Positions 10,187-40,655 of a DNA stretch of 50,800 bases are shown piece after piece. The translations under genes and the position numbers were made by a program. The stretch is from Escherichia phage vB_EcoS_ESCO41: the sequence record NC_047820.1; one strand, written 5' to 3'. Every line of letters starts with the position of its first letter. Positions within the stretch are counted from its first letter, which is position 1. The notes beneath the pieces were generated by a model. It made no database searches. It was given only the letters and a program-made list of their open reading frames with translations, and was not told the origin of the DNA.

Positions 10187-10735
10187 GTGAGATTCAGCGA
10201 TATTTTTACATACAAAAGCGGAGAGGTTTTCTGGAATGGAAGGCCAGAAAGTGATTTTAGTAAAATGAGTGCATATCACGCGTTTAATAGGATGGTTGGC
10301 AATACTGCTGGATACCTAGATAAATCAAACGGATACTGGTATGTGTGGATTACAATTGGCGGTATTGAAAAGAAAATACCACGATCACATATTGTGTGGT
10401 GTATTCACAATAATGCAGCCATCGTTCCAAAAGGGTTTGTTATTGATCATATAAACCACGTAAGAGATGATGATAGGATAGAAAACCTTGAACTTAAAAG
10501 CTATAGAGGAAACAACAGAAACCTTTCAATATCAAAAAGGAATAAAAGCGGTTGCGTAGGTGTTACATGGTATTCTCGCGATGAAATGTGGATGGCTTGC
10601 ATAATGGGTGATGACGGAAAGAACAAAAATCTTGGCAGGTATAATGACTGGTTTGATGCGGTTTGCGCAAGGAAGAGCGCGGAGCATGAGATTGGGTATC
10701 ACACAAACCACGGCAAGGATAGCGAGAATTGCTAA
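10187..10735 (+). CDS. HNH homing endonuclease (GTG start)
   Basis: IDHINHVRDDDRIENLEL matches the HNH/AP2-type motif; paralogous to 12823 and 40179 genes. Confidence 0.75.
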   Translation: MRFSDIFTYKSGEVFWNGRPESDFSKMSAYHAFNRMVGNTAGYLDKSNGYWYVWITIGGIEKKIPRSHIVWCIHNNAAIVPKGFVIDHINHVRDDDRIENLELKSYRGNNRNLSISKRNKSGCVGVTWYSRDEMWMACIMGDDGKNKNLGRYNDWFDAVCARKSAEHEIGYHTNHGKDSENC

Positions 10736-10748
10736 ACTCATGTATAAT

Positions 10749-10778
10749 GGCTAGGCTAACAACCTAGCCATTTTTATT
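10749..10778 (+). terminator. rho-independent terminator
   Basis: GGCTAGG-ctaacaa-CCTAGCC hairpin followed by ATTTTTATTT. Confidence 0.5.
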
Positions 10779-10790
10779 TGGAGAAAACAG

Positions 10791-12053
10791 ATGAGCAAAA
10801 AAAGCGTTAAGACCGACTCTTACAACAAGGTGTTTAAGGGTGAAGGCACGGCAGGCGGGGCGCTTGCATCGCTATATGATCAAATGTATGTGACTCAGTT
10901 TTACATTGATGATCCTATGGCTAAAAAGATTGTTGACGTAATACCAGAGGAGATGGTATTCCCTGGGTTCGGGCTGGACGGCGTGAAAGACGAGAAGGCA
11001 TTCAAATCACTATGGGATGGCCTAAAGCTGAACAAGCAGATCGTAGAGGCGTTCTCATGGGAGCGGCTATATGGCGGTTCAGCTATCGTTGCCGTCGTCC
11101 GTGATAACAGACTTCTGACATCACCAATCAAGGAAGGTGCTCAGCTTGAGTCAATCCGCGTCTACGAGAAAGAGCAGATCCGCATCAAGGACCGCGAGAA
11201 GAACGCACGAAATCCTCGCTATGGTATGCCGAAGATTTACACCATTAACCCTGGCGGCAGCGTACCGGAATACGACGTCCACTACACGCGAGTCTATGTT
11301 AACGGCGGCGAGCGTGTTCCTAACTCACTTCGTGCGCAGAATAACGATTGGGGCGCATCGGTGCTGAGCAAGGGCTTGATTGATGCCATTCTGGACTACA
11401 ACTACTGTGAGGAACTGGCGACTCAGCTATTGCGCCGTAAGCAGCAAGGCGTATGGAAAGCTAAAGGTCTGGCGGATTTGTGCGACGATGACGAAGGTCG
11501 TTACGCAGCACGGCTTCGATTAGCCCAGGTTGATGACAATAGCGGCGTAGGTCGTACAATTGGTATCGACGCCACCGACGAGGAATATGATGTTCTCAAC
11601 TCCGACATCAGCGGCGTAGACACCTTCCTTGATAAGAAAATGGACCGTATCGTGAACTACTCACAGATTCATGAAATTATCCTCAAGAATAAGAACGTAG
11701 GAGGCGTATCAGCGAGCCAGAATACAGCGCTTGAGACTTTCTATAAGATGATTGATCGTAAGCGTAACGAGTATTACAGGCCGCTTCTGGAGTGGTTAAT
11801 TCCAATGATGATTAATGAGGAAGAGTGGTCTGTACGCTTCGAGCCGTTATCAATGCCAAGCGAGAAAGAGCAATCTGAGACGCTGAAGAATAACGTCGAC
11901 TCAATCTCTAAGCTGGTTGCAGATCAGGTCATTGACCGTGACGAGGCGCGTGATACACTTGAGGCGATCGCAGACTTTATCAAGATTCAAGGACCGGCAC
12001 CGGAAATTGAAGTGATTGAACCAGCAGATCAACAGGTTAACAACGAGGAATAA
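10791..12053 (+). CDS. portal protein
   Basis: 420-aa ORF directly after terminase/HNH, acidic C-terminus; assignment by order and size. Confidence 0.7.
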   Translation: MSKKSVKTDSYNKVFKGEGTAGGALASLYDQMYVTQFYIDDPMAKKIVDVIPEEMVFPGFGLDGVKDEKAFKSLWDGLKLNKQIVEAFSWERLYGGSAIVAVVRDNRLLTSPIKEGAQLESIRVYEKEQIRIKDREKNARNPRYGMPKIYTINPGGSVPEYDVHYTRVYVNGGERVPNSLRAQNNDWGASVLSKGLIDAILDYNYCEELATQLLRRKQQGVWKAKGLADLCDDDEGRYAARLRLAQVDDNSGVGRTIGIDATDEEYDVLNSDISGVDTFLDKKMDRIVNYSQIHEIILKNKNVGGVSASQNTALETFYKMIDRKRNEYYRPLLEWLIPMMINEEEWSVRFEPLSMPSEKEQSETLKNNVDSISKLVADQVIDRDEARDTLEAIADFIKIQGPAPEIEVIEPADQQVNNEE

Positions 12054-12055
12054 TC

Positions 12056-12820
12056 ATGAAGGTTAACGGCATTGTAAATCAATGGAGTTACCCCGAAGCA
12101 AGCGAGCGGCAACTTAGCCGCTCATTGTCAACCTTCGCTGGTCAAATGGCTAAGAAGGCTGGCACGCTTACTGGTGGGATGAGGTTTGACGCTTCTGACG
12201 AGGAGATCAACAACGCAGAGGATGAGCTGGCGAAGTATGCCGCTGGGCTTATCGCGACTATCGTTGCTACACTTCCGGCACTGGCCATGGCAATCTATAA
12301 GTTCAACTCAAAGCAATTTCTAAACGTAGCGAAGAAGGCTGGAGGAAAGAATAATCAAGCGGTCATACTGCTTGGCGTGCTGGGGTCGAATGCTAGTGAG
12401 TCATGGTATCGTGAGAAGTCATCGCAATGGCGCGGTTCAGCTGAAGCAAGTATCCTGAAGCTATCAAACGACATCATCTCTGACTGGTCGCAAAACCTAC
12501 GCGTAGAAAATGTGCGCAATAAAACCAGCAAGCAGATTGACGAAGTTTTAAAGCAGCGTTACAAGGTGTATACTGGCTGGACCGTAAACCGATCTCGCGG
12601 CATCGTCTCCACCTGGAATAGCGTACTTATGCGCCAGCGCCTTGAAGATGCCGGGGTAACTCACTATTTCTGGCATGGTAAATTAGATGAGCGCGAGAGA
12701 TTGCAGCACGTAAAGTGGGAAGGTAAACGTATTGAGATCTCAGATGACCATCCGTTCCCTGGAGAGCCTTACGGTTGCCGATGCTGGGCTGTTCCATCAT
12801 TCGATAGCAATGGTAATTAA
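12056..12820 (+). CDS. head morphogenesis / minor head protein
   Basis: 254-aa ORF directly after portal; positional assignment. Confidence 0.55.
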   Translation: MKVNGIVNQWSYPEASERQLSRSLSTFAGQMAKKAGTLTGGMRFDASDEEINNAEDELAKYAAGLIATIVATLPALAMAIYKFNSKQFLNVAKKAGGKNNQAVILLGVLGSNASESWYREKSSQWRGSAEASILKLSNDIISDWSQNLRVENVRNKTSKQIDEVLKQRYKVYTGWTVNRSRGIVSTWNSVLMRQRLEDAGVTHYFWHGKLDERERLQHVKWEGKRIEISDDHPFPGEPYGCRCWAVPSFDSNGN

Positions 12821-12822
12821 CT

Positions 12823-13305
12823 ATGAATTTCAATGATTATTTTTATCATGTAGGAAAAGATCTCATCTGGAAAAATCCGACATCAGCAAGGGTTAAGGCT
12901 GGCGATATTGCTGGATGGAAGGATGAGGATGGATATATTTACGTTAGGATTATGGGTAGGCTAACTCCAGCCCATAGGGTAATATGGGAGATGCACCATG
13001 GCAAAATACCTGAAGGTATGGAGATTGATCATATAAACCACATCACGGATGATAACAGGATCGAAAACTTAAGGCTCGTAACCAGGCAAGAGAACTGCAA
13101 AAACGTCTCGATGAGTAAGTCAAACAAAAGCGGATTTGTCGGGGTTAGTTGGTGTAAGAGAACGAGCAAATGGTTTGCTTCAATAAGGGTGGACAAAAAG
13201 GAGCGGTTCCTTGGTAGATACGATATAAAAGATGACGCTGTGTACGCAAGAAAGGATGCAGAGACGAAATATAATTTTCACAAAAATCACGGGAGTAAAA
13301 AATGA
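12823..13305 (+). CDS. HNH homing endonuclease
   Basis: IDHINHITDDNRIENLRL motif; inserted between head genes. Confidence 0.75.
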   Translation: MNFNDYFYHVGKDLIWKNPTSARVKAGDIAGWKDEDGYIYVRIMGRLTPAHRVIWEMHHGKIPEGMEIDHINHITDDNRIENLRLVTRQENCKNVSMSKSNKSGFVGVSWCKRTSKWFASIRVDKKERFLGRYDIKDDAVYARKDAETKYNFHKNHGSKK

Positions 13306-14429
13306 CTACTAAGCAACGATATGACAGCGTTCCGATTAAGGCGCGATTCGATTCGAATGGTTTTCTGCATGACGAACCAGTCATCGCAAGAATCGGTATT
13401 CAGGAGTACATGCGTGCCGATGGAACAATGCAGCGAGAGTTCCGACCAGCGAACGAAGTGTTCAAGGCTGAGGCTATGGAGCTGTTCCGTGGAATGCCGA
13501 TCGTAGAGGGCCACCAGGAAGTAAGCACAAGCAACGCGCGAAAGATTGTTGTTGGCTCTCTTTCTGGCGCTGGCCGTCGAGACGGGATCGGCTTGAAGTG
13601 TCCGATCGTAATCCATGATAAGGAATCAATTGAATCAGCCAAGCGTGGCGACGCGGCTGAGTTGTCAGTTGGTTACAAGACCAATGACATTCACCGAGAA
13701 GGTTGGGGCAACGTTAACACTGGTGATTATGTTTTCAAGGATGACGCTGAAGGAATGGAGTCACGCTTCCCAAGCGGAACGGTAATGACCGACGAGTGGG
13801 AGGAGTTCGACGTACTGCAAACCAATATTGTCCCTAACCACGTCGCCAAGGTTAAGCACGGACGCGCAGGTATTGCCAGATTAAACCTTGACGGCTCAGA
13901 AGAAATTAAATATGATGAGCATGTTCAATTAACCAATGAGGAAAGTGAAATGACCGTAAAAATTAAAATTGACTCAGCTGAAGTGGAAGTATCAAAAGAC
14001 GTGGCAGACCACATCGGCAAGCTGCAAGCAAAAGCCGAACAAGCTGGCGCAAAGGTTGATGGCCTTCAAGCTGAATGCGACGCCCTGAAAGCTAAAGTTG
14101 ACAGCATTCCAGACCAGATCGAAGCAGCACTGAAAGAAGCAAAAGAAAAATCTGACGCGCTGGGCGCCGTTATCTCTTTTGCATCCGGCATCGGCATTAA
14201 GTGTGATGACCTGACTGAGAAAGAAATCAAGCTGGCGGTTATCGACGAAGTTCTCGGTATCGACGCGAAAGAAAAATCTGATGCATACATCAATCAGTCT
14301 TATGAAATCGCTCGTGATTCTGATAAGATGGCAGCTCAGCGAATCAAGGTTCATGGTGATAAGTCCGACGACAAAAACGATGGTGCAGACTCTGGAATCC
14401 CTGATCCTCAAGCTCGCTTCCGTAAGTAA
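13302..14429 (+). CDS. putative capsid scaffold / prohead maturation protein
   Basis: 375 aa; C-terminal Ala/Lys/Glu-rich coiled-coil-like region; lies between portal and capsid genes. Confidence 0.45.
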   Translation: MTTKQRYDSVPIKARFDSNGFLHDEPVIARIGIQEYMRADGTMQREFRPANEVFKAEAMELFRGMPIVEGHQEVSTSNARKIVVGSLSGAGRRDGIGLKCPIVIHDKESIESAKRGDAAELSVGYKTNDIHREGWGNVNTGDYVFKDDAEGMESRFPSGTVMTDEWEEFDVLQTNIVPNHVAKVKHGRAGIARLNLDGSEEIKYDEHVQLTNEESEMTVKIKIDSAEVEVSKDVADHIGKLQAKAEQAGAKVDGLQAECDALKAKVDSIPDQIEAALKEAKEKSDALGAVISFASGIGIKCDDLTEKEIKLAVIDEVLGIDAKEKSDAYINQSYEIARDSDKMAAQRIKVHGDKSDDKNDGADSGIPDPQARFRK

Positions 14430-14483
14430 TACAATCAGCGGTCGAAAGGCCGCTAACATATAAGTTGAAAAAGGAAAAATATC

Positions 14484-14996
14484 ATGGCACTAATCAAAGC
14501 ATCTTATACGGTTAACCGTTCAAAAGCATATGCAGGCCTGCTGGCTGACACCTCTCTCTACAACGTTGATGGAGCTTGTGCGGCGGCTAAAGAAATTAAG
14601 GTTGGCGTGGTAGTCGCCCTCGATCCTACTGGAAAGGTTGTTGATGGTCACAAAGTCGTAACTGACACCATCTCTGCAGAAACACCGAACCTGGTTGGCG
14701 TCGCAATCATGTCTCACGCGTACTCACCGGAAGGTGTATATGACGAAGGTTCTGCAACAAACGTGCTTACTCATGGTCGAGCATGGGTACTCTGTGCTAA
14801 AGACCTGCCTGAAGCGAACAAAGAGTTCAATAAGCAGGTGTTCTTGACCACTTCCGGCACTGTGGCGGCAACTGGTATTGGCACCGCGTACACCACTACT
14901 GGCGAATGGTTGAAGACTGATAATGAGAACTTCGACATTATCAAAATCCAGGTTACTCAAGCTCAATTCCAGCTTCCGGCAAGTCCGGCAGCTTAA
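14484..14996 (+). CDS. putative head structural/decoration protein
   Basis: 170-aa ORF with strong RBS, followed by terminator; positional. Confidence 0.35.
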   Translation: MALIKASYTVNRSKAYAGLLADTSLYNVDGACAAAKEIKVGVVVALDPTGKVVDGHKVVTDTISAETPNLVGVAIMSHAYSPEGVYDEGSATNVLTHGRAWVLCAKDLPEANKEFNKQVFLTTSGTVAATGIGTAYTTTGEWLKTDNENFDIIKIQVTQAQFQLPASPAA

Positions 14997-15013
14997 TAGC
15001 TGAACCATAATAT

Positions 15014-15036
15014 GGAGCCGAAAGGCTCCTTTTTTA
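15014..15036 (+). terminator. rho-independent terminator
   Basis: GGAGCC-gaaa-GGCTCC followed by T7; same hairpin as at 45841. Confidence 0.7.
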
Positions 15037-15074
15037 TTGCCAGGAATAGCTCAAGCGCTTAACACAAAAAGCTG

Positions 15075-15102
15075 TTGACCGTTTAACAAAAAATGCTATT
15101 AT
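15075..15102 (+). promoter_or_regulatory. sigma70-type promoter TTGACC-N16-TATTAT for the major capsid gene
   Basis: -35 15075-15080, -10 15097-15102. Confidence 0.55.
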
Positions 15103-15149
15103 AGACCCGTGAACTTAATCACGTCTTTCTAAACCAAAAGGAACAAATT

Positions 15150-16103
15150 ATGACTATGAAATTAGATTCTTTCGAGAAGAATATGATCACTAACGGCCTT
15201 CGCCAGCTCGGCATCAGCGGAAGCAAAGTCGATCAGATGGGTATCTGGACCGTTAACCAGATGACGCAACTTCTGAAGCGTCAATATGAAGAGGCGTACC
15301 CTGAAACTTCAGCGCTTGCTCTGTTCCCTGTCACCACAGAAATCAGCCCGACCGCTAACCTGTTCGAATACATGAAGTTGGACGGCGTGACCATGGCGAA
15401 GATTATCGCTGACTATAGCGACGACCTGCCGACCGTTGACGCTACTCACACCATGGAATCAGGTCGAGTTCACCGACTGGGTAACGCGTGGTTTATCTCC
15501 ATTGATGAGATCAAAACTGGAGCAGCTCTTGGTTCAAGCCTTTCTGACCGTAAAGCAACTCTGGCTCGCGAAGGTCACGAAACACTGGTTAATCAGCTGG
15601 TTTTCAAAGGCTCGAAGCCTCACAAGATCGTTTCGGTATTTGACCATCCGAACATTCCGCGAGTAAACTCTGTGGCTGGAGCGTGGGCTGACGCTGAAAA
15701 GGCAAGTGATGAACTGACCGACCTGATCGAGCAGATGGAATCAGTCACCAATGGTAAGCACAAAGTAACCGACATCGTAATTCCGCCGTCTCAGCGTAAA
15801 CTGCTGGCTAAGCGTATGCCGGAAACGACCATGAGTTATCTTGACTGGTTCAAGTCTCAGAACGGTGGCATTACCATCTCTTCCATTTCTGAACTGGAAG
15901 ACATCGACGGAGCAGGCACCAAAGCCGTACTGGCTTACGAAAAAGATCCGATGAACATGAGTATCGAGATCCCTGAGTCGTTCAACATGCTGCCAATGCA
16001 GCCGAAAGACTTGCACTTCAAAGTGCCGTGCACGTCAAAGACCACTGGCCTGATCGTGTATCGCCCACTTACCCTCATCCTCCTGGTTGGTGTGGGCAAG
16101 TAA
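15150..16103 (+). CDS. putative major capsid protein
   Basis: 317-aa ORF with own promoter, strong RBS AAAGGAACA and flanking terminators; positional. Confidence 0.6.
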   Translation: MTMKLDSFEKNMITNGLRQLGISGSKVDQMGIWTVNQMTQLLKRQYEEAYPETSALALFPVTTEISPTANLFEYMKLDGVTMAKIIADYSDDLPTVDATHTMESGRVHRLGNAWFISIDEIKTGAALGSSLSDRKATLAREGHETLVNQLVFKGSKPHKIVSVFDHPNIPRVNSVAGAWADAEKASDELTDLIEQMESVTNGKHKVTDIVIPPSQRKLLAKRMPETTMSYLDWFKSQNGGITISSISELEDIDGAGTKAVLAYEKDPMNMSIEIPESFNMLPMQPKDLHFKVPCTSKTTGLIVYRPLTLILLVGVGK

Positions 16104-16109
16104 AACAAA

Positions 16110-16137
16110 GCCCCTGATTAATTTCAGGGGTTTTTTT
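16110..16137 (+). terminator. rho-independent terminator
   Basis: CCCCTGA-ttaatt-TCAGGGG followed by T7. Confidence 0.7.
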
Positions 16138-16139
16138 GT

Positions 16140-16168
16140 TTGACTCATAGTCAAAAATGAATTAAATT
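16140..16168 (+). promoter_or_regulatory. candidate sigma70 promoter TTGACT-N17-TAAATT
   Basis: Direct reading; weak -10. Confidence 0.3.
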
Positions 16169-16210
16169 AGAACCTCAAAAGCTAATGCAACCAAGTAAGG
16201 AATATTAAAA

Positions 16211-16486
16211 ATGACTACCAAAACCGTTAAGATTAAAAATATTGGCGCTTGCCTGCTTCGCATCAACAAGACAAACGTATCCCCTGATGAATCAATTGAA
16301 GTTGATGAGTCAGAAATCAAGTCTCCTGCATTTAAGCACCTATTTATCTCTGGCGTCGTCGAGTTCGAAGATGAACCAAAGAAAACTCGTGAGATTATTG
16401 AAGGGTTCAAGTCAACCATGAAGACTAAGAAAAAGAAAGAGCCTAAGAGCATCGAAGAGCTGGAAACTGGCGCAGACATCAAATAA
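16211..16486 (+). CDS. hypothetical Lys-rich protein (91 aa)
   Basis: ORF between two terminators with RBS. Confidence 0.45.
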   Translation: MTTKTVKIKNIGACLLRINKTNVSPDESIEVDESEIKSPAFKHLFISGVVEFEDEPKKTREIIEGFKSTMKTKKKKEPKSIEELETGADIK

Positions 16487-16493
16487 ACCATAT

Positions 16494-16519
16494 GGGGCGC
16501 TAATGCGTCCCTTTTTTTT
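16494..16519 (+). terminator. rho-independent terminator
   Basis: GGGGCGC-taat-GCGTCCC followed by T8. Confidence 0.65.
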
Positions 16520-16537
16520 ATCAAGAGGAAATCAACC

Positions 16538-16951
16538 ATGAATGAAGATCAAATTAAGACGTTGGGGTTTATGCGACAGCTAGCTCCGGCACTCAAAAAA
16601 GTGGAAGATGAAGTTTTTACTGCATGGATAGCTCTGTCTGAGTCATTCGTATGCAAGAGCAAATTCGGCAATGATTACTACAAGGCTCTAGCCCTGTACA
16701 CAATGCACTTGATGTTTTTGGATGGTGCGATGAAGGGGGAAAATGAAAGCCTGGAAAACTACTCACGGCGAGTAACGTCATTCTCCCTGAGCGGTGAATT
16801 TTCCACTGGCTACGGCTCTGTAACGCAGAATACTGACGGTCGTCAGATTACTCAAACACCATGGGGTAAAATGTTCGACGTTCTCAACAAGAAGAAAGGC
16901 GGTGGCTTCGGCCTCATCTCTGGCATTCGGGCGCGGGGTTGTGTGCGATGA
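16538..16951 (+). CDS. putative head-tail connector/adaptor protein
   Basis: Position between capsid and tail genes. Confidence 0.35.
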
Positions 16952-17328
16952 TTGATTACAATGAAATCCAAAGGCTTACCAATCAGGGGATTAATGCTTT
17001 TTCTGGTAACGATGAGGTCGGGTTCGATATTATCATCACTGGTGGCGGCGTCCAAATGGTTGACGGTGAAGAGGTGAAAGTGCCGGAGGTTCGAGGTAAA
17101 GTGTTCGGCGCTGTGCGAGCGATCAACTATCACATGATTGATGGCGAATCTATCAAGCTGGGAGACAAGCGTGCGTTCTTCTCTAACGTTACACCGATTG
17201 AGAATGGGATGATTATCATCCTTGAGGGCCAGCACTGGCGAGTCGTTGACAATCGACCAGTTAACCCGACTCAATCTCACGTTATCGCATACCGTCCGAT
17301 CTTGCGTAAGGTAGCGGCACATGGCTAA
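16939..17328 (+). CDS. putative head-tail joining protein
   Basis: Overlapping, translationally coupled ORF in the structural operon. Confidence 0.35.
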
Positions 17329-17764
17329 CTATATCGTCAGGAAATTCCAGGGCGATATAGAGAAGTGGATTAAGCAGGTTAAATCGGGCCTTGATGACGT
17401 TATTCGTGAGTTCGTCAAGGCTGTACACGCCGATTTAGTTAAAGGCTCTCCAGTCGATACAGGGCGATTTAGAGCTAACTGGCAGATAACCTATAACCAC
17501 ATCCCAATGTACGCGCTGAATGAGTATGACAAAACGGGTGACAAAACCATCGCCGCAGGTATACGAACAGCTAACGCATTGCCGTTAGGTCGTGGCGGCG
17601 CGGTAACTACCATCTATTTTTCTAACATGCTGATCTATGCAAATGCTCTGGAGTACGGACATTCACAGCAAGCTCCCGCTGGCGTGCTTGGCCTGGTGGC
17701 TATCCGGTTGAGATCTTACATGGCAGAAGCAATTATTGAATCAAGGAATAAAAATGGTTTATGA
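17321..17764 (+). CDS. putative tail component
   Basis: Overlapping ORF in the structural operon. Confidence 0.35.
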   Translation: MANYIVRKFQGDIEKWIKQVKSGLDDVIREFVKAVHADLVKGSPVDTGRFRANWQITYNHIPMYALNEYDKTGDKTIAAGIRTANALPLGRGGAVTTIYFSNMLIYANALEYGHSQQAPAGVLGLVAIRLRSYMAEAIIESRNKNGL

Positions 17765-18155
17765 CGATTATGACCTGGCGGTCGCGGCGCGTAAGGCGCT
17801 ACATGGTGAGTTCGGAAGTCGATTCCCTATCATGCATGAGAACGTAGCGTTCACTGAGCCTGACGATGGCTCTACGTGGTTGAAGTTTGATTACATTCCG
17901 GCAGAGAAGACGTACAAATCTTTGAGCCGGAAGTGTATCAGGATTCGTGGCCTTGTCCAAATTGGCATTGTTTTCTCGCCTGATACTGGCATGGATGACG
18001 CGCGCAAACTAGCAAAAGAAATTGCTAATTTCTTCGAAGATGGTAAAATCCTTTCTGTAGGTTTTATTTTTGAAGGCGCGAGCCAAAAGCCCGTGCAGAA
18101 ATCACAACGAGGCTGGTTAATTCCAATCCGCTTCACAGTACAATACGACGAATAA
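17754..18155 (+). CDS. putative tail completion protein (start chosen at ATG 17754)
   Basis: RBS AAGGAATAAAA before ATG 17754; ORF-track start 17736 would overlap the upstream gene by 29 nt. Confidence 0.35.
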   Translation: MVYDDYDLAVAARKALHGEFGSRFPIMHENVAFTEPDDGSTWLKFDYIPAEKTYKSLSRKCIRIRGLVQIGIVFSPDTGMDDARKLAKEIANFFEDGKILSVGFIFEGASQKPVQKSQRGWLIPIRFTVQYDE

Positions 18156-18168
18156 AGGAGCATTAACT

Positions 18169-18843
18169 ATGGCACTTCCTAACGGTTCCCAAATCTTTAT
18201 TGAGCAGACCCGAGCAGCCACCGAAATCGAAGCAACCGCAGTGAGTAACGCGGAAAATCCGGTGGCGACTGTTGCGTCAACCACTGGCATTGTGAAAGGC
18301 GATTACGTCCTGGTGCTGGAAAGCGTATGGGCTGCATTTAAAAATCGCGTAATGCGAGTGAAAGAAGTAACCCTGGACGCATCAATCACGCTTGAAGGCG
18401 ACAAGAACACTTCCACGGCTGACCTTAACAAGTTCCCCGCTGGCGGCGCTTCCACCTTCGTTAAGATCGAAAGCTGGATTGAGATTCCATGCGTGAGCGA
18501 CATTGCAAAATCTGGCGGCGAGCAGCAGTTCTATACCAAGCAGTGCCTATCAGATGACCGAGAGAAGCAGATTCCGACCTTTAAATCTGCGACGTCCATC
18601 GCGTATACGTTCGACTTCGACTACTCCAACCCAATCACTCAGCTTCTGATTGGTTACGACGAAGACGGCAAGACGCGAGCTATGCGAATGTTCGTACCGA
18701 AGGCAAGCTATCCGATCCGCACCTTCTCTGGTACTCCATCTTTCGATGACATCCCTAACACGGTGATGAACGAAGATGAAACGACCATCCTGACCATCTC
18801 ACTTGATGGCAAATACACGCACATGAAAGAGTTTGTTGCGTAA
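18169..18843 (+). CDS. putative major tail protein
   Basis: 224-aa ORF with strong RBS AAGGAG, immediately before chaperone and tape-measure genes; terminator follows. Confidence 0.55.
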   Translation: MALPNGSQIFIEQTRAATEIEATAVSNAENPVATVASTTGIVKGDYVLVLESVWAAFKNRVMRVKEVTLDASITLEGDKNTSTADLNKFPAGGASTFVKIESWIEIPCVSDIAKSGGEQQFYTKQCLSDDREKQIPTFKSATSIAYTFDFDYSNPITQLLIGYDEDGKTRAMRMFVPKASYPIRTFSGTPSFDDIPNTVMNEDETTILTISLDGKYTHMKEFVA

Positions 18844-18849
18844 TGCAAA

Positions 18850-18872
18850 GGGGGCTATTGCCCCCCTTTTTC
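18850..18872 (+). terminator. rho-independent terminator
   Basis: GGGGGC-tatt-GCCCCC followed by T-run. Confidence 0.7.
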
Positions 18873-18917
18873 TATTTGTGATTTAATGTCACCAATTCAA
18901 ACAAAGAGGAAAACACC

Positions 18918-19235
18918 ATGAGCTTTAAAGTAACCCTATCAGAACGCCTACCAGACTTCCAATTGCCAGTTAAATTTGTATTACCGAACGGCGTGGAGGC
19001 TACATTTGCATTCACCGTCAAGGCGCTAACGTCATCCGAACTTAACGCTACGCTGAAAAATGCAGAAAAACAGACTGGCGCTCAGTTTGTAAAATCCCTG
19101 GCTAGTGGGTGGGAACTTGAGGACGAGTTCAATGATGAAAACATCAACAAGCTGGTTGACAGTTACCCTGCCGTTGTTGGTGGCCTTATCTCAACCTACA
19201 CTCAAGCGTTGGCTGGCTACCGAGTAAAAAACTAA
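18918..19235 (+). CDS. tail assembly chaperone (lambda G-like)
   Basis: 105-aa ORF directly upstream of tape measure, ending at slippery site A_AAA_AAC. Confidence 0.65.
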   Translation: MSFKVTLSERLPDFQLPVKFVLPNGVEATFAFTVKALTSSELNATLKNAEKQTGAQFVKSLASGWELEDEFNDENINKLVDSYPAVVGGLISTYTQALAGYRVKN

Positions 19236-19546
19236 AACGGGCGGTCGAGCTACTATTCAGGCGAACGCCCACCGACTCAGAATTAGAGGCATACGGATTA
19301 ACCCGTGAAGACTACGAAAACGAAGATCCTGAAATATTGCAGTTCGACGAGGAAACATACCAGTCATGGGAAGTATTCACCGCGATGCAAACTCAATGGA
19401 GATCTGCAGGAGCCGGAGCTTACGGGCTTGACTATAATGTCTTGCCTATGCTATTTCGAATCTATAAAATAGATTGTGAAGAAATGGCCTTAAATGATGT
19501 GCGTGTGATGGAAGCGGAAGCTCTTAAGCAAATGCACAAAAAATAA
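18918..19546 (+). CDS. tail assembly chaperone -1 frameshift product (lambda GT-like); shift at AAAAAAC 19226-19232
   Basis: The -1 frame stays open from 19232 to 19546 (I read every codon); heptamer is 3 nt before the zero-frame stop. Confidence 0.55.
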
Positions 19547-19547
19547 T

Positions 19548-19569
19548 AGCGCCTACGGGCGCTTTTTTC
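19548..19569 (+). terminator. hairpin plus T-run (possible attenuator)
   Basis: AGCGCC-tacg-GGCGCT followed by T6. Confidence 0.5.
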
Positions 19570-19582
19570 GTATGGGGGTTTT

Positions 19583-22489
19583 ATGACAGATAAATTTGCA
19601 GGGCTATCGCTTGGCGTTGACGTTTCCCAGGTTGACAGGGCGGTCAAGTCTCTTGATGAGCTGGCAAGCGCTAACAATAACGCAGGCAAGAGCTTCGACA
19701 ACTTCATTAATGCTGAGCAAGTCGCAAAGCAAAAAATGAAAGATTTAAACAACGAGGTCAAGCGCCAGAAGAAGGAGTTCTCTGAGGTAGAAAAGGTCAT
19801 CGACCCTACAGCGAACAAGATGCGCCAGCTGCAACAAGCAAGTGTAGATCTGGATAAACTCTGGAGTAAGGGCATGGTCCCTGATAAGGAGTTTTTTAAT
19901 CTTTCAAGCATGATTGAGACTCAGATTAACGCGCTTAATCGTTCGAAACTGGCTATGACCGAAGAGGGTCGGGCGGCACTGGAGAACTCAAAGGCAAAGG
20001 CCGCAGCAAAGAACAGTGCTGACTCATTCCTTAAGTCATTAAGGGATCAGGCGAACGCGGCTACCATGACAAAGCAGGAGCTATTGGAGCTGAGAGCCGC
20101 TGAGCTTGGCGTGACAGCTCAGGCCGCTCCATTTATCGCTGCAATGAACAAGCAGGCAAAGGCTACAAACGTAGCAGGGCTTTCTGTTGGTGAATACAAA
20201 AACGCAATGCGTATGCTACCAGCTCAGATAACTGACGTGGTTACTTCTCTTGCGTCAGGTATGCCTGTGTGGTTGGTTGCTGTTCAGCAGGGTGGGCAGA
20301 TCAAGGATTCATTCGGCGGCGTAGGAAATACGTTCAAAGTTCTGCTTTCATACCTGAACCCAGTAACCGTTGGGATGACTGCGATGGGTATTGCTCTTGC
20401 TGGCCTGGCAAAAGCTGGTTATGACTCCTACCGTTACATTACTGATATGCAAAACGCCTTGATTGAAACTGGTGGATTTTCAGCGGCTACCGCAGCTGAC
20501 CTTGATGCGATAGCAACAAAGATTGCTGACACCAGTAACGCGACTATCGGATCTGTTCGAGATATTGCTACTGAGCTTGCAAAGAGCGGGAAGTACACCC
20601 AGGACCAAATCAGGATTATTACTCGCGCCACTGCTGAATGGTCAGCCGCGACGGGTCGGGCAGCGAGCGATATTATCAGTGACTTTAGTAAGATTGCAGG
20701 TGATCCCGTAAAGGGTCTGGCAAAACTGAATGAGCAGTACAACTTCCTTGAAAAAGGACAGTTAACCTACATTAACGGAATCGCAAAGACTAGGGGAGAA
20801 ACCGAAGCAGTAACGGAAGCAACGAAATTATTTGCTGATGTCATGGAAGAAAGAATGAGCAAGATTGCAGGAACGGCGACACCACTTGAAAAGATGTGGA
20901 ATGACATTAAGAAATGGTCGTCTGATGCTTGGGGATGGGTTGGAGATCACACGCTAGGCGCACTAAACCTAATTATTGATGTGGTTAGCGGAACGGTAAT
21001 TCAGGTCAAGATGATTCTCGCCAAAGGTGATGAATACATTTCTAACTTTATCGCGTCGGCAATCAAGGCAACACAGTCTCTGCCTTTCGCAGAAGATTTC
21101 GGTAAGGACATTCTCGCAGGGCAGGAGAAGATCGCATCTGAGTCGAAAGCGACTTACGATGGACTTGCGAAAGATCTTGATGAGATTAACGCCAGGGTAG
21201 AAAAGGGAGAAATGGGGTACGTTAACGCCCTGAAGGAGCGGAGAGATCTTGAGAAGCAATACAGCAAAGAAACGAAGGACGCTGTAGAGAAAGAGGCAAA
21301 GGCCATTGAGGAAGCCAACAGGAAAAAGGGGGGCGCCAGGATAACAAAAGGGGCAACAGAACAGCTTGATAAAGAGCTTTACGTTCTCAAAGCCCAGCTT
21401 AAAACATTGCAAGAGCACACGTCTATTAACGACAAGATCTCAAGCCAGAGGAAAGCGCTATGGTCAACAGAAGCTCAGATCGCAATTCTGCAGGAGGCTC
21501 AGAGCAAACGCAAACTGACAAATGAGGAAAAGGCATTGCTCACCAGTCAGCAAAAGGTTCTCTCGCTAGCGAAGGAAAAGGCTGAAATTGGTGATCAGAT
21601 TGTTGCCCAGGAGAGAATAAACAAGCTGAATGATGATTCAATGAAGTTTATCATGCAGATGGACGCAGCCAGCAAGTCTCTGAACGAGACGAGGTCTATG
21701 GGTACTCGTGAAGCTGAAAGACAGCTTCAGCTTGAGAGAATTAAAGCTGATTACATGGCTAAAGGCGGCGGGGAGGATGACCAGGCGCTGAATAATATGC
21801 TTGATAAGCAGAAGGAGTATTATGCACAAGAGGATCAGCTTCGTGGAGATTGGCTGGCTGGTGCGCAGAAAGCATTTGCGGACTACGGAGATAGCGCAAC
21901 GGATATGTACGGAAACGTATATGACATCGCAACTAACTCCCTGAACGGTTTGTCAGACATGATGACTGAGTTCCTGATGACGGGGCAAGCTAACTTCGCA
22001 GACTTTGCAAAGAGCATTATCAGCCAGATCATTAAGATGATCACTCAGATGGTAATCTTCAACTCAATCTCTGGAATGATGGGCGGCTCGGCTGGCGGCA
22101 AGGGGTTCTCCTTCGCTAACTCAGGATGGTTCGCTACTGGCGGGTACACTGGCGACGGTGGAAAATATGAGCCTGCTGGAACAGTACACAAAGGTGAGTT
22201 TGTCATGACCAAGGAAGCGACAAAGCGAATTGGAGTCGATAACCTTTATCGAATGATGCGCGGTTATGCGAATGGCGGGATGGTTGGTGGAACTTCAAGC
22301 GGAGGCGGCGGCGCTGCAATCATGGCTGGCGGCGTGACAATTGGAAGCATCCCTGTTAGCATCAATAACGGTAGCGATCCGAAGGGTATGGAGCAAGGCG
22401 TGAAAATGATTTTCAAGCAAATGATTCAGGAATCATGCTCCCAGGGTGGCGAAGTTTACAATTACATCAACGGAAAAGCAGGAGCGTAA
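19583..22489 (+). CDS. tail tape measure protein
   Basis: 968 aa, Ala/Lys/Glu-rich helical sequence, Gly-rich C-terminal region, downstream of chaperone pair. Confidence 0.85.
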
Positions 22490-22492
22490 TAA

Positions 22493-22840
22493 ATGGCCCT
22501 AGACGTTTTCAAGTGGTGCGTACAGGTTCAGGATGGTGGCGGCGTGATGACCGTCACCAACAATGACAGGCAGGTGCAGTTTGGTAATGGATTCCGCCAG
22601 GTTGCATCGTCTGGCTACAACACTGAGCGACGAGAGTACGCAATCAGTTACGTTGGCAAGGACTGGAAAGAAGTGCGCGAATTTTTGCGATCGCACAGAC
22701 TGAAAGCCTTTGCCTTTACCCCACCGGAGGACAAGATCGGCGTCTTCCTATTGAAGCCTGACACGCTGAATACTCAGCCAATCGGTCGAGGTCTTCTTGT
22801 CGTAAAATGCACCATTGTAGAAACATTCACAGCGGTGTAG
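22493..22840 (+). CDS. minor tail protein (lambda M-like)
   Basis: 115-aa ORF immediately after tape measure. Confidence 0.55.
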   Translation: MALDVFKWCVQVQDGGGVMTVTNNDRQVQFGNGFRQVASSGYNTERREYAISYVGKDWKEVREFLRSHRLKAFAFTPPEDKIGVFLLKPDTLNTQPIGRGLLVVKCTIVETFTAV

Positions 22841-22845
22841 AATAA

Positions 22846-22869
22846 AGCCTCCTAGCGGGGGCTTTTTTA
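22846..22869 (+). terminator. rho-independent terminator
   Basis: AGCCTCC-tagc-GGGGGCT followed by T6. Confidence 0.55.
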
Positions 22870-22885
22870 TTGGAGGTGCGTGTAA

Positions 22886-23395
22886 ATGTTTAGGGTTTGT
22901 AAAAAATGCGGAGTTGAGAAACCTTTCGAGTTATTCTGCAAGCACAAGCAGTGCAAGAATGGGATAACTCATGAGTGCAAGGAGTGCAGTGAGGCCAGAA
23001 GGGTTCCATTAGACCCGAAAGAGAAGGCGGATTACGATAAGAGAAGGTACGAAAGAAGTAGGGACTCTCACCTTAAGATGATGAGTGAAAATAACGAGTT
23101 ATACAAAATGAGGCATTACATAGCAAGTGATAAAAAGAAAGGTTTTGTAAGTGATATAAACATTGAATATTGTATTATAAAAATGAATGAACCATGTCAC
23201 TACTGCGGTCACATTGACACACCAGCTAACGGCCTTGATAGAATAGACAACTCAATAGGTCACGTTAAATCAAACCTAGTTCCTTGCTGTCGATTATGCA
23301 ACATGACAAGGGGTGACAGGTGGAGCCATGAAGACTTTATCAAATACATATCGCCTTCAATTAAGCTTTTCAGGAGAGAAGAAAATGTCAGCTAA
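22886..23395 (+). CDS. HNH endonuclease with Cys-rich N-terminal zinc-finger-like region
   Basis: CKKCGVEK..CKEC and HYCGH..LDRIDN..NLVPCCRLCN motifs; inserted between M-like and L-like tail genes. Confidence 0.6.
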   Translation: MFRVCKKCGVEKPFELFCKHKQCKNGITHECKECSEARRVPLDPKEKADYDKRRYERSRDSHLKMMSENNELYKMRHYIASDKKKGFVSDINIEYCIIKMNEPCHYCGHIDTPANGLDRIDNSIGHVKSNLVPCCRLCNMTRGDRWSHEDFIKYISPSIKLFRREENVS

Positions 23396-24131
23396 ATTCG
23401 AAAACGTACTGCAGAGCCTGTTTCCGGGTGAGGTAATCACTCTAATTGAAATTGATGGAACTCGCTTTGGCGCTCAAATTTACAGAATGCACAACGAGAA
23501 CATCCAGTTTACGCCGGAAGAGATTCTTGCAGCAACACAGCCAGGCGGGAGCCTTAAGCCAAAAACAATCACCTTTCAGGGAAATGAATATGGCGCACGC
23601 CCATTCGGCATCTCTGGCATTGACTTAAATGGTAATGGCAAGGCCGGAAAGCCTCAGCTATCACTATCTAACCTTGATAGCCGCGTGTCGGCGCTTATCC
23701 GGTCCTACAACGGCATGATGCAGGCCAAGGTGACTATCTGGATAACCTCAAGAGAAATGCTCGGAAACAACGGAGAAGTCTCACCTGGCGACTTCAGAAA
23801 ATACGTTTACTACATTGAGCGACCGAACTTTGTCGATCAGAACGTTGCGAGATTTGACCTGACTTCACCATATGACATGGACGGAATCATGATTCCACCG
23901 CGAGTCACTCAGAGCGTTTGTTTTTGGGCGCAGCGCGGCTGGTACAGAAGCGGAAATGGGTGTGGTTATAATGGGAGCGCTATGTTTGATAAAGACAACA
24001 ATCCAGTAACCGATCCATCTCAGGACGTTTGCGCGGGAACTGTAACTGCCTGCAAGTTGAGATTCGGGGCTGAAAACGAATTGGACTTTGGCGGCTGCGC
24101 TGTCGCATCACTTGACAGGAAAAACCAATGA
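23386..24131 (+). CDS. minor tail protein (lambda L-like); start chosen at ATG 23386
   Basis: RBS AGGAGAGAAGAAA before ATG 23386; the ORF-track start 23313 is deep inside the HNH gene. Confidence 0.6.
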
Positions 24132-24853: not shown

Positions 24854-25440
24854 AAACAATCAAGCTATCAGGTTCGCTTGGCCGCAGGTTCGGCGTTTTC
24901 CACAAATATGACGTTGACTCATACCCAGAGGCTATCCGAGCGCTATCATCTCAGGTTGCAGGGTTCAAGGAGTTCATGCAAAGCGAGATTGGCTCCCGTA
25001 TGCACTTTGCTGTGTTCGTGGATGGTAAGAACGTTGGGCCGCATGATGAATCGGCATTCAGTTGCGCTAAGGAGGTTCGAATTATACCGATCCCTACCGG
25101 TTCAAAAAATGGCGGCATGTTCCAGATTGTTGTTGGTGCTGTAATGATGGTGGCAGCATTCTACACTGGAGGCGCGTCACTGGCCCTCATGGGTACATTC
25201 GCAACGTCAGCATTTATGATGGGTGGCGCCATGGTTCTTGGCGGCGTGATGCAGATGATTTCACCGCAGCAAGGCGGCTCAAAGATGGAGGTTCAGAGCA
25301 GCAAAAACAAGCCTTCATATGCTTTCGGTGGCTCAGTTAACACAACGGCAGCGGGAAACCCGATCCCGGTCCCGTATGGTTACAGGACTGTAGGCGGGGC
25401 GACATTCTCAGCTTATAGCGTCGCAGAAGATATGGCATAA
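24847..25440 (+). CDS. tail assembly protein (lambda I-like)
   Basis: 197 aa with hydrophobic Gly-rich C-terminal half; position between K-like and J-like genes. Confidence 0.55.
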   Translation: MLKTIKLSGSLGRRFGVFHKYDVDSYPEAIRALSSQVAGFKEFMQSEIGSRMHFAVFVDGKNVGPHDESAFSCAKEVRIIPIPTGSKNGGMFQIVVGAVMMVAAFYTGGASLALMGTFATSAFMMGGAMVLGGVMQMISPQQGGSKMEVQSSKNKPSYAFGGSVNTTAAGNPIPVPYGYRTVGGATFSAYSVAEDMA

Positions 25441-37959: not shown

Positions 37960-37972
37960 TTTATCACCTCAA

Positions 37973-38015: not shown

Positions 38016-38060
38016 GTACCAAATTAAACGCTACAAGACAATTTTTATAGGAATTTAGAT

Positions 38061-39242
38061 ATGTTGCCTATCGAGAAGTTGGTTGCGAACTTCGATAAAG
38101 AAAGAATCAAACAAATTCAGAGAGATTATCAGTTTGGCGAGATAACCCCTTACGAATTCCAGTGCGTTACATTTGATGCAATTGGAAAGGCTATTGGGAA
38201 GTATGAGGCCCCATTTATAGCAGACCTTTCCGTTTCTGCGGGTAAGACAATTATTCTTGCCATGATTGGTAAGCGCATGGAGCAATTAGGGTTGCCTTAT
38301 ATGGTTCTTTCTCGCCAGTCAGAGATAATCAGCCAGAACTCAGAAGAGCTCCGTAATTTCGGTATCCGTAACAGCGTATATTGCGCTGGCCTTAACGTTA
38401 AATCAGTTTACTACCCAACCATAGTGGCTAGTGAGGGTACGGCAGCCAATGGCTTATTTAAGGGGCTTGGTGACTATGTTCCTGCGGTTATCGCTATAGA
38501 TGAATGTCACATGCTTGATACCATAGATATTGTGGAAGCCGAAGAGAATGAAGAAACATTTGAGCAAATGAGCACAAAGAAAGGCGAGATGGTTTTTAAG
38601 GATGGCGTTAATACTGGATTGCTTGGTACTGGTCGTGCGCAGTACACGCTAATAATCACTGAGATGAAGCGTCGCTGCCGTGAAAAATACGGGCGGGAGC
38701 TTCGTATATTCGGCCTTACTGGTAGCCCTTATCGAAACAATGACCATATCGTCGTTAGCAATCCAAACATCCGTGGGTTCTGGCGAAAAACTGTGATTCA
38801 GGTTCCAACAAATTACCTTGTTGATTTGGGATTCGTGGTTCCTACTGTTTATGGCGAGGTTGGCGATTTAGGTTATGACCTTAGCGAGTTTGAGCCTGAC
38901 GGAAGCGATGGTGTGAAAGATTTCAGCAAGAAAGAAATGGATGCGATGGCTGCAAAGATTCACGACAATCAGTCAATGACTCAAAAAATAATGGGGTTTG
39001 TTGTAAAAATACTAGAGACTCGTAACGCCGCGCTGGTTACATGCGCTGGCAAGTTGCACTGCAGTGAAGCGGCTGCCGCACTGCCTGATGGATACCCTTA
39101 CGCAATCATTACTGATTCTACTGGCGAGAAAAAACGACGTGAGATTCTATCTGATTGCCAGACAGGTAAGTACAAAATAATATTCCAAATTGGGTGTCTA
39201 ACTACGGGCGTTTCGGTCCCGCCCTTACGCAATCATTACTGA
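38061..39242 (+). CDS. SF2 helicase, N-terminal part (reading frame broken by 127-bp tandem duplication)
   Basis: Walker A SVSAGKTI, DEAD-box-like AIDECHM; ORF stops 21 nt into the second repeat copy. Confidence 0.65.
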   Translation: MLPIEKLVANFDKERIKQIQRDYQFGEITPYEFQCVTFDAIGKAIGKYEAPFIADLSVSAGKTIILAMIGKRMEQLGLPYMVLSRQSEIISQNSEELRNFGIRNSVYCAGLNVKSVYYPTIVASEGTAANGLFKGLGDYVPAVIAIDECHMLDTIDIVEAEENEETFEQMSTKKGEMVFKDGVNTGLLGTGRAQYTLIITEMKRRCREKYGRELRIFGLTGSPYRNNDHIVVSNPNIRGFWRKTVIQVPTNYLVDLGFVVPTVYGEVGDLGYDLSEFEPDGSDGVKDFSKKEMDAMAAKIHDNQSMTQKIMGFVVKILETRNAALVTCAGKLHCSEAAAALPDGYPYAIITDSTGEKKRREILSDCQTGKYKIIFQIGCLTTGVSVPPLRNHY

Positions 39243-39348
39243 TTCTACTGGCGAGAAAAAACGACGTGAGATTCTATCTGATTGCCAGACAGGTAAGTAC
39301 AAAATAATATTCCAAATTGGGTGTCTAACTACGGGCGTTTCGGTCCCG
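39095..39348 (+). repeat. perfect tandem duplication, 2 x 127 bp (39095-39221 and 39222-39348), inside the helicase gene
   Basis: Base-by-base comparison; 127 is not a multiple of 3; deleting one copy restores a single ORF 38061..40182. Confidence 0.85.
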
Positions 39349-39369
39349 CCGTGGGACACAAGCGTTGTA

Positions 39370-40182
39370 TTGAGAAAGATTGGTAGCTTAACTCTCATGA
39401 TTCAGCTTCTTGGGCGAGGCATGCGAATTCTAAAGAAAAAGCATATAGAAATGGGGATGAAAAAAGATGATCACCTTGTTCTAGACTTCGCCGGCGCACT
39501 TGACGATATGGCCGAACTTTACTTTGACCCAATCATTGAAGAAATTCAGGCTGAGAAGTTCAAGTCCTCAAGGAAAGGTGGTGATGAGGTCCGGCAGTGC
39601 CCGCAGTGTGGATATGAGAACTCACCATTTGCTCGACGCTGTAGCAACAAGATTGATGGAAAGCGCTGTGAGCACTTTTTCAGCTTTACGGTTTGTGAAG
39701 ATATTACTGACCCACAAACAAAGTCCGTCATCAAGAAAGGTTGCGGTACTCGCAACGACATAGCAGCAAAGGTTTGTCGTGAATGCGGAGAAATGCTTAA
39801 AGACCCTAATGCTAATCTAACCGGTAAGATGTATCGTCGTGGTGATTACCTCCGAGTTTATGATTTTCAAGTTGGTTTAAGTAAGAACCAGACTGGAATA
39901 GTTGTTAAATACAACATCATGGCGCATAACGGAGAGCGGTTTAATGCTTGGGAGTTCTTTAATCCAGAATCAGACCATCGAGTTTGCAGCGTGCTTTGGA
40001 AAAATTTCTGCCTATCCCATATTGAGAATCGCACAGAAGCAGCACGAATTGCTAAACTTCGCAGCGCAAAAATGATTATGATGAACGTAGATAAATTCCG
40101 TGCTCCTGTGCAGGTAACTCACAGAAAGAATGGCAAAGGAAAGGACATAATAGCTTTTAAGAATTTTGGAGAATTATTATGA
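39370..40182 (+). CDS. SF2 helicase, C-terminal part (motif VI plus Cys-rich zinc-finger-like region); possibly a pseudogene fragment
   Basis: QLLGRGMR helicase motif VI; CPQCG..RRCSNK..CEHF and CGTRND..CRECG; frame continuous with upstream ORF if one repeat copy is removed. Confidence 0.55.
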   Translation: MRKIGSLTLMIQLLGRGMRILKKKHIEMGMKKDDHLVLDFAGALDDMAELYFDPIIEEIQAEKFKSSRKGGDEVRQCPQCGYENSPFARRCSNKIDGKRCEHFFSFTVCEDITDPQTKSVIKKGCGTRNDIAAKVCRECGEMLKDPNANLTGKMYRRGDYLRVYDFQVGLSKNQTGIVVKYNIMAHNGERFNAWEFFNPESDHRVCSVLWKNFCLSHIENRTEAARIAKLRSAKMIMMNVDKFRAPVQVTHRKNGKGKDIIAFKNFGELL

Positions 40183-40655
40183 ATTGGAATGAGTGTTTTT
40201 ACTATGACAATGGCGTTTTGAGGTGGAAAATCCGCAGGGCTAATTGCGTTAAAATTGGTGACGAGGTCGGATTTAAACACGAGAGAGAGGGTTATAGGTT
40301 TTTCTGTAGGGACAGAAAACAATACTCTACACACAGAGTAATATGGGAAATGTTTTACGGACCAATACCGAAGGGCATGGAGATAGATCACATTAATCAC
40401 GTTAGGGATGACAATAGAATAGAAAACCTTAGACTTGTAAGTAAGCAATCAAATATGGAGAACAAATCGAAATACAAGAACAACAAAAGCGGATTTACTG
40501 GAGTGAGCTTCGAAAGTAAGTCTGGTCGGTGGTCTGTGAGTGTTGGGTCAAAAAGATACGGAAGATTCGATAACATCGAGCACGCAAAAATATGCGCAAT
40601 GATAGTTAGGGCTGAACTTGGATACCACGATAACCATGGGGATTATTTCCAGTGA
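40179..40655 (+). CDS. HNH homing endonuclease
   Basis: IDHINHVRDDNRIENLRL motif; paralog of 10187 and 12823 genes. Confidence 0.75.
   Translation: MNWNECFYYDNGVLRWKIRRANCVKIGDEVGFKHEREGYRFFCRDRKQYSTHRVIWEMFYGPIPKGMEIDHINHVRDDNRIENLRLVSKQSNMENKSKYKNNKSGFTGVSFESKSGRWSVSVGSKRYGRFDNIEHAKICAMIVRAELGYHDNHGDYFQ

Follow-up and report, generated by a model that had tools for sequence, protein, structure and literature searches.

The genome of Escherichia phage vB_EcoS_ESCO41 (sequence record NC_047820.1), analysed here as one stretch of 50,800 nucleotides (hereafter the window), carries four putative homing-endonuclease genes, each lying in a short junction between conserved phage genes (Table 1). 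ESCO41 is a T1-like phage of the genus Nouzillyvirus, family Drexlerviridae, and its genome has a guanine-plus-cytosine (GC) content of 46.1%. Three of the genes encode HNH endonucleases of the AP2 type (HNH-1, HNH-2, and HNH-3), and the fourth (nuclease-4) encodes a nuclease with two four-cysteine (Cys4) motifs. All four open reading frames (ORFs) listed in a preliminary description of this DNA are present, and the neighbouring genes are those it had named, as judged from the annotation of relatives and from Pfam matches on homologous contigs (Phage_min_tail and Phage_tail_L for tail genes M and L; Helicase_C and VRR_NUC at the helicase junction). An exact look-up found all four proteins in the public GenBank/RefSeq record of ESCO41, and the genes are thus already annotated, i.e. 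as AQY55277 ('hypothetical protein'; UniRef name 'HNH nuclease domain-containing protein'), AQY55280 ('HNH endonuclease' or 'AP2 domain protein'), AQY55293 ('endonuclease VII'), and AQY55310 ('HNH endonuclease'). The GC content of the four genes is 39–40%, which falls at the 5th percentile or lower among 500-bp windows of the genome. No further nuclease copies or remnants were detected in the window by tblastn with all four proteins (E <= 10), and ten other ORFs of the window matched no nuclease family in PHROGs.

Table 1. Nuclease genes, flanking genes, and hairpins at the four junctions of the ESCO41 genome (aa, amino acids).
Feature	Position	Strand	Basis or remark
Large terminase (TerL)	8517..10136	+	Relatives' annotation
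HNH-1, 182 aa, GTG start	10187..10735	+	HNH_3 match plus C-terminal AP2-like domain
Conserved terminator-like hairpin	10746..10772	+	Directly right of HNH-1 insert, 5' of portal
Portal	10791..12053	+	Relatives' annotation
Minor capsid/head-morphogenesis gene	12056..12820	+	Relatives' annotation
HNH-2, 160 aa, I-HmuI-like HNH plus AP2 domain	12823..13305	+	HNH_3 match
Protease/scaffold gene	13302..14429	+	Relatives' annotation
Tail gene M (Phage_min_tail)	22493..22840	+	Pfam on homologous contigs
Conserved terminator-like hairpin 3' of M	22844..22865		M–L alignment
Nuclease-4, 169 aa, PacI-like His-Me finger (predicted), two Cys4 motifs	22886..23395	+	
Tail gene L (Phage_tail_L)	23385..24131	+	Start ATG 23385
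DNA helicase, split in record	38061..40182	+	Helicase_C on homologous contigs
HNH-3, 158 aa, I-HmuI-like HNH plus AP2-like domain	40179..40655	+	HNH_3 match
VRR-NUC family protein, 139 aa, GTG start	40652..41071	+	Pfam on identical-context contigs

The motif reported earlier for the three AP2-type proteins, IDHINH(V/I)(R/T)DD(D/N)RIENL, occurs verbatim in each of them (IDHINHVRDDDRIENL, IDHINHITDDNRIENL, and IDHINHVRDDNRIENL). All three match Pfam HNH_3 (PF13392), with E = 3e-9, 1e-23, and 6e-24 and scores of 36.7, 83.1, and 83.8 bits for HNH-1, HNH-2, and HNH-3, respectively (gathering cut-off, 24.8), and phrog_99 'HNH endonuclease' (E = 6e-46 to 1e-63); these matches are far beyond chance. 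The AP2 profile PF00847, run against the C-terminal segments alone, scored 13.9–17.7 bits (E = 0.0045–0.07), below its gathering cut-off of 33.3, and NCBIfam yielded nothing useful for any of the four nucleases. Residues D69, H70, N82, and N94 (numbered as in HNH-2) do not vary among 21 aligned HNH proteins, including the three window copies, and align to the motif of I-HmuI, the intron-encoded HNH nicking homing endonuclease of Bacillus phage SPO1 (PDB 1U3E), which has the same DH...N...N catalytic motif. The predicted fold of the three proteins is I-HmuI-like with an AP2 domain consisting of a three-stranded sheet plus a helix. At the sequence level, I-HmuI is matched only marginally (E = 0.15). 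Furthermore, the I-HmuI gene is located in an intron, whereas the ESCO41 genes are free-standing between genes, and nicking, the known activity of I-HmuI, is only predicted for the ESCO41 proteins.

For comparison, ten relatives were sampled by megablast with positions 8000..24500 of the window: TH30, PH1062, XT34, p111, TH27, TH21, BUCT-XGG-1, P818, P817, and CJ19. All are Nouzillyvirus coliphages of the family Drexlerviridae, with a nucleotide identity to the window of approximately 84–88% (megablast; about 87%). The occupancy of each junction was determined using the flanking proteins as anchors. The relatives do not uniformly carry the same genes at the same positions: empty sites were found at all four junctions. 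In the junction alignments, the inserts are bounded by stop and start codons, with recoding of the codons next to them.

The TerL–portal junction is empty in five of the ten relatives (TH30, TH27, TH21, BUCT-XGG-1, and P817), which have only a spacer of ~51 bp. In the window, the inserted segment extends over ~10089..10740. Its left break lies inside the last codons of TerL, of which the final ~16 (from ~10089) are part of the HNH-bearing allele, such that the TerL C-terminus reads ...MKKLAGLRKSTKSQNTP in the window versus ...MKRLAGMRK in the empty-site relatives. The right boundary lies just before the terminator-like hairpin, which is kept in both occupied and empty alleles. HNH-1 is preceded by a Shine-Dalgarno sequence (GAGGT) 6 nt 5' of its GTG start codon. 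The same gene is present in PH1062 (98% amino acid identity), and XT34, p111, P818, and CJ19 contain a different HNH gene at this site; the two types, A and B, form sister clades and are 43–44% identical. The window and PH1062 share 99.1% identity over 9735..10770 (the 3' end of TerL plus HNH-1) versus 86.7% genome-wide, which points to a recent exchange of this segment.

Several further features were observed at this junction. The extended -10-like sequence TGTATAAT is present at both ends of the HNH-1 insert, directly after the TerL stop codon (10141..10150) and directly before the conserved hairpin 5' of portal (10741..10750); it could represent a duplicated promoter element or a homology boundary of the cassette. 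Promoter scans gave match numbers at the chance level, and cassette-specific promoters were not established by them. The PH1062 copy of HNH-1 is annotated from an internal ATG (147 aa), although its N-terminal 35 residues are conserved, and the HNH gene that XT34 carries between TerL and portal (10795..11244) is labelled 'histidinol-phosphate aminotransferase' in GenBank, an evident misannotation.

HNH-2 starts 2 nt past the stop codon of the minor capsid gene, and its own stop codon overlaps the ATG of the protease/scaffold gene. This junction is empty in six relatives (PH1062, TH27, P818, XT34, p111, and P817), and the remaining four (TH30, BUCT-XGG-1, CJ19, and TH21) carry orthologues with 85–90% amino acid identity. 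At the 3' end of the minor capsid gene, the final ~10 codons (from ~12790) co-vary with the presence or absence of HNH-2: the protein ends in VPSFDSNGN in the window and nearly identically in the HNH-bearing relatives, in IPDMSTSKQSQLIT in PH1062, and in a similar but non-identical tail in the other empty relatives.

Nuclease-4 is found in the window only; the M–L junction is empty in all ten relatives, in which the gap between the two genes is 42–47 bp. The insert (~22878..23384, ~507 bp) is the largest segment of the window without a match in any relative, and apart from 22878..23381, no window-specific segment exceeds 350 bp. The alignment at this junction is clean. Homology extends through the hairpin 3' of M and the ribosome-binding site (RBS) GGAGGT and resumes inside L. 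Nuclease-4 uses the old RBS of L, which in turn receives a new RBS and start codon from the 3' end of the nuclease gene. Recoding affects the first codons of L (MSAKFEN in the window versus MTPKFEN in nine of the ten relatives, with TH27 differing; at the nucleotide level, ATGTCAGCTAAATTCGAAAAC in the window versus ATGACACCTAAGTTTGAGAAC in PH1062 and P818). The overlap of nuclease-4 with the start of L, noted in the preliminary description, was confirmed and amounts to 11 nt when the L start is corrected to the ATG at 23385 from the GTG at 23313 that had been assigned mechanically.

HNH-3 overlaps the helicase stop codon (ATGA) and the start of the following VRR-NUC gene (GTGA). Because the HNH-3 stop codon overlaps this start (CAGTGA), the VRR-NUC gene begins with GTG in the window, versus ATG in XT34 and P818. 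The junction is empty in seven of the ten relatives and is occupied in the window, in XT34 by a 43% identical HNH gene, and in BUCT-XGG-1 by a frameshifted copy. The window and XT34 have common flanks and share the first 14 nt of the HNH gene (ATGAATTGGAATGA), beyond which the two HNH genes differ, a pattern that resembles a cassette swap. The closest homologue of HNH-3 in the phage collection (53% identity) is that of Hanrivervirus BEK7, where it occupies the equivalent slot: the helicase gene precedes it, and the next gene encodes a 139-aa protein.

A survey of HNH genes in the 11 genomes (the window and the ten relatives) by ORF extraction, blastp, and a neighbour-joining tree identified 34 ORFs of the phrog_99 type, between one and six in each genome, spread over at least 14 distinct junctions. 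HNH genes common to several genomes at one junction form tight clades with 85–100% identity; most of the genes cluster by junction, and nowhere in the tree do copies from a single genome form a clade. Besides TerL–portal, four junctions (primase–regulator, helicase–next gene, ~44381, and lysin–spanin) each hold two HNH genes that are only 39–43% identical, and these dissimilar pairs do not group together in the tree. The relatives carry I-HmuI/AP2-type genes at another 11 junctions, none of which is occupied in the window (window positions ~4606, ~6513, 8489/8517, 24131, 32468/32545, 37159/37477, 41071, ~43169, ~44381, 45461, and ~48668). For example, p111 has one between TerS and TerL, XT34 between L and K, BUCT-XGG-1 and TH27 between exonuclease and Erf, four phages between primase and regulator, and XT34 and P817 between lysin and spanin. 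A similar picture has been described for Skunavirus, whose free-standing I-HmuI-like HNH genes differ in number and position and group according to insertion site (PMC12724721).

Taken together, the presence/absence polymorphism with empty sites, the precise boundaries, the recoded flanks, the junction-tied lineages, the intact catalytic residues, the low GC content, and one recent transfer tract support the repeated homing-endonuclease invasion suggested in the preliminary description. It is very probable that the four genes are free-standing homing-endonuclease cassettes, i.e. selfish elements that sit in the short gaps separating the conserved genes of this T1-like phage; from these comparisons we infer that the proteins are active nucleases, where their targets lie, and that the genes home. 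In co-infection with a cassette-free relative, the enzyme would nick or cut the empty junction, and recombinational repair off cassette-bearing genomes would then copy the gene and some flanking DNA into the recipient, a process called 'intronless homing' that would be accompanied by co-conversion or marker exclusion. The carrier itself would be protected, with the cassette replacing or recoding the neighbouring codons that form the target; recoding of adjacent conserved codons, as observed here, would be expected if those codons constitute the target of the endonuclease. Endonuclease-triggered spread in co-infection is established for the Seg and Mob genes of T4 (PMC2988022, PMC2790892), and a description that includes marker-exclusion assays exists for the I-HmuI-like HNH genes of Skunavirus (PMC12724721). 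The free-standing genes of T4-like phages show the same insertion between genes, the same polymorphism, and the same flanking changes and gene conversion; they differ from the ESCO41 nucleases, for which homing is putative, in protein family (Seg, GIY-YIG; MobE, HNH).

Several points weigh against this interpretation. All of the support is comparative, for activity, target sites, and homing alike, and presence/absence patterns by themselves could also arise by deletion. The 3' tract of TerL that is nearly identical to PH1062 is likewise nearly identical in BUCT-XGG-1, whose TerL–portal site is empty, which indicates that general mosaicism contributes; this process, rather than homing, could explain part of the tract. 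Around HNH-2, no co-conversion was detected: the gene and its flanks are no more similar among the carriers than the genome average, and HNH-2 may therefore be an old, vertically inherited resident.

A related explanation is that the cassettes are kept mainly because they serve phage competition, for example by cutting co-infecting relatives (marker exclusion), and are not pure parasites; some copies may be inactive relics. The occurrence of distinct HNH lineages at the same junction recalls competing endonucleases, marker exclusion has been shown for the I-HmuI-like HNH enzymes of Skunavirus (PMC12724721), HNH-2 resembles a long-standing resident, and the HNH copy at the helicase junction of BUCT-XGG-1 is decayed. 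The four nucleases of the window are, however, full length with intact catalytic residues. In addition, a competitive benefit overlaps mechanistically with homing, and the two cannot be separated by sequence alone. We regard this explanation as possible but rather unlikely as the main reason for the persistence of the cassettes.

The preliminary description had raised the possibility that HNH-1 is a DNA-packaging cofactor acting with the terminase. T1-like phages package DNA by a headful (pac) mechanism, and HNH cofactors have been described for cos cleavage. HNH-1 lies directly between TerL and portal, as does an HNH gene in five of the ten relatives, and terminase-adjacent packaging HNH proteins such as HK97 gp74, the HNH proteins of staphylococcal phages, and Skunavirus HrdP are well documented (PMC3592412; PMC12967558). 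Nevertheless, the other five relatives, which are viable isolates, have nothing but the short spacer at this site, and four of the occupied sites contain the other, 43–44% identical HNH lineage. The copies dispersed over at least 14 junctions are also of the same I-HmuI/AP2 type as HNH-1. This protein consists of an HNH_3 domain plus AP2, lacks a Cys4 motif, and is not one of the small [CxxC]2 HNH proteins described beside cos sites (PMC3592412); its gene adjoins TerL and portal, not a cos site. Moreover, HNH-1 is not conserved within its genus, whereas HrdP is universal in Skunavirus (PMC12967558). Given the empty sites and the HNH subtype, packaging is rejected as the main explanation of HNH-1, and a role as a packaging cofactor is quite improbable.

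Nuclease-4 was originally described as a zinc-finger HNH protein, which is correct with respect to its two Cys4 motifs; however, the canonical HNH histidine is absent and the protein is PacI-like. It has no Pfam match, nor does any of its 16 closest homologues have a precomputed Pfam domain, and a single-sequence search of solved structures returned marginal HNH matches only. A profile of the nuclease-4 family, on the other hand, detected PacI (E = 0.002), aligning GLDRIDNSIGH..N..CC.LCN with GvDRsDsfeGY..N..CfiCN. Nuclease-4 is modelled as a PacI-type His-Me finger nuclease, with a predicted beta-beta-alpha-metal core that two Cys4 zinc motifs flank and a PacI-like fold. PacI (PDB 3LDY/3M7K; group 20 of the His-Me finger nucleases, PMC5714182) has the same two Cys4 motifs and the same replacement of the canonical histidine by arginine, and an omega-loop tyrosine takes the role of its missing catalytic histidine (PMC5714182; PMC4081073). 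Among 163 representatives of the nuclease-4 family (214 motif instances), the canonical histidine position is occupied by arginine and the metal-binding asparagine is present in 213 instances each. The position aligned with the PacI tyrosine is tyrosine in 162 and histidine in 48 of the 214. The common motif of the family is D-R ... G-[Y/H] ... CxxC-N. Nuclease-4 itself contains D118-R119-I120-D121 and, at the position of the PacI tyrosine taken as the general base, His126; this tyrosine was matched by alignment, as no residue number is given in PMC5714182 or PMC4081073. The pattern at His126 is consistent with a PacI-like chemistry using an alternative base, the PacI tyrosine being the one picked by alignment. 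PacI differs in being a bacterial restriction enzyme, whereas nuclease-4 is a polymorphic cassette between phage tail genes.

The label 'endonuclease VII' given to nuclease-4 in the public record and by its match to phrog_1035 (E = 1e-30) would make it a Holliday-junction resolvase for phage recombination or packaging rather than a mobile element. The Endo VII/F-CphI 'DHHRN' family (PMC6083498) also comprises free-standing phage His-Me finger nucleases carrying this label, but the D-H-H-R-N set is incomplete in nuclease-4, which has D-R-I-D instead of D-H-D-H, and no invariant histidine was found in the alignment of its family. Because the family lacks the DHHRN residues of Endo VII and F-CphI, the database label is imprecise, and the resolvase explanation, rejected on catalytic residues and fold, is very improbable. 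A tblastn search of the phage collection with nuclease-4 (E <= 1e-5) returned 66 records, with no cyanophage genus among the ten listed.

Homologues of nuclease-4 with 54–60% and at least 90% identity, found in phage MM01 (Rogunavirinae) and on metagenome contigs, are all located at the M–L junction. Two remote homologues are located elsewhere: a 44% identical gene of TH27 (24901..25377) lies downstream of L (23440..24183 in TH27), and a 37% identical gene of Shigella phage ESh4 (ON528718.1, 21128..21646) overlies or adjoins tail gene K. Their positions suggest sub-lineages with different targets within the tail module. With thresholds of E <= 1e-3 and E <= 1e-10, the family profile matched 44,287 and 16,598 clusters (50% identity), respectively. 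We tentatively propose, at somewhat less than even confidence, that nuclease-4 may represent a very large, essentially uncharacterised PacI-type branch of site-specific, free-standing homing endonucleases of tailed phages, which would use a tyrosine or histidine base and, in this lineage, be tied to the M–L junction across subfamilies of Drexlerviridae.

The preliminary description had also called the three AP2-type genes paralogs, which holds for their common architecture and identical 16-residue motif but overstates the case for duplication within the ESCO41 genome: pairwise identities are only 40%, 44%, and 35%, indicating separate acquisitions, not recent duplicates; in the tree, the window copies fall into three different clades with genes of other genomes or other junctions, and no two of them pair up (the nearest neighbours of HNH-1 and HNH-2 are same-junction genes of other genomes, 98% and 85–90% identical, respectively, and metagenome contigs carry the exact HNH-3 protein, again at the helicase–VRR-NUC junction). 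In-genome duplication, the least probable of the explanations considered, is rejected on these grounds.

The gene upstream of HNH-3 is a helicase gene, as had been stated, but it is split in the record by a perfect tandem duplication (127 bp x 2.0, 39095..39350), which frameshifts it into ORFs of 393 aa and 270 aa. Removal of one copy restores a 1,995-nt ORF for a 664-aa helicase, which is the length found in XT34, P818, and metagenome contigs with the identical HNH-3. The exact HNH-3 protein is encoded on at least 23 metagenome contigs, and on each of the three whose gene context was viewed, its neighbours are an intact 664-aa helicase and VRR-NUC. Since 127 is a common maximum k-mer of assemblers, an untrimmed circular-contig overlap is the likely cause, and the duplication in the public ESCO41 record is probably a product of assembly rather than a biological feature. 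Apart from this, two deeply divergent alleles of the helicase and VRR-NUC genes (38061..41071) occur within the genus: the window proteins are ~50% identical to those of PH1062, TH30, p111, TH27, TH21, BUCT-XGG-1, P817, and CJ19 and ~91% identical to those of XT34. This split is a swap of the replication module that is independent of the HNH cassettes.

Homing-endonuclease infestation is routinely noted in phage genomes (PMC8594841), and the biology of the four cassettes is ordinary in this respect; what is modestly new is the genus-wide occupancy map, the recoding at the junctions, and the placement of the fourth gene with the PacI type. As the 127-bp duplication shows, the RefSeq genome of a type species probably contains an error. 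Replacing the label 'endonuclease VII' by a PacI-type assignment would correct a database label, and the large, unmodelled nuclease family behind it might yield new sequence-specific enzymes. The four genes and their recoded flanks should be masked in Drexlerviridae phylogenies and species comparisons. The map of at least 14 junctions over 11 Nouzillyvirus genomes provides ready pairs of occupied and empty sites for tests of homing and marker exclusion in a simple coliphage system. For ESCO41 itself, these results suggest that the four genes are mobile passengers rather than parts of the packaging, head, tail, or replication machinery.

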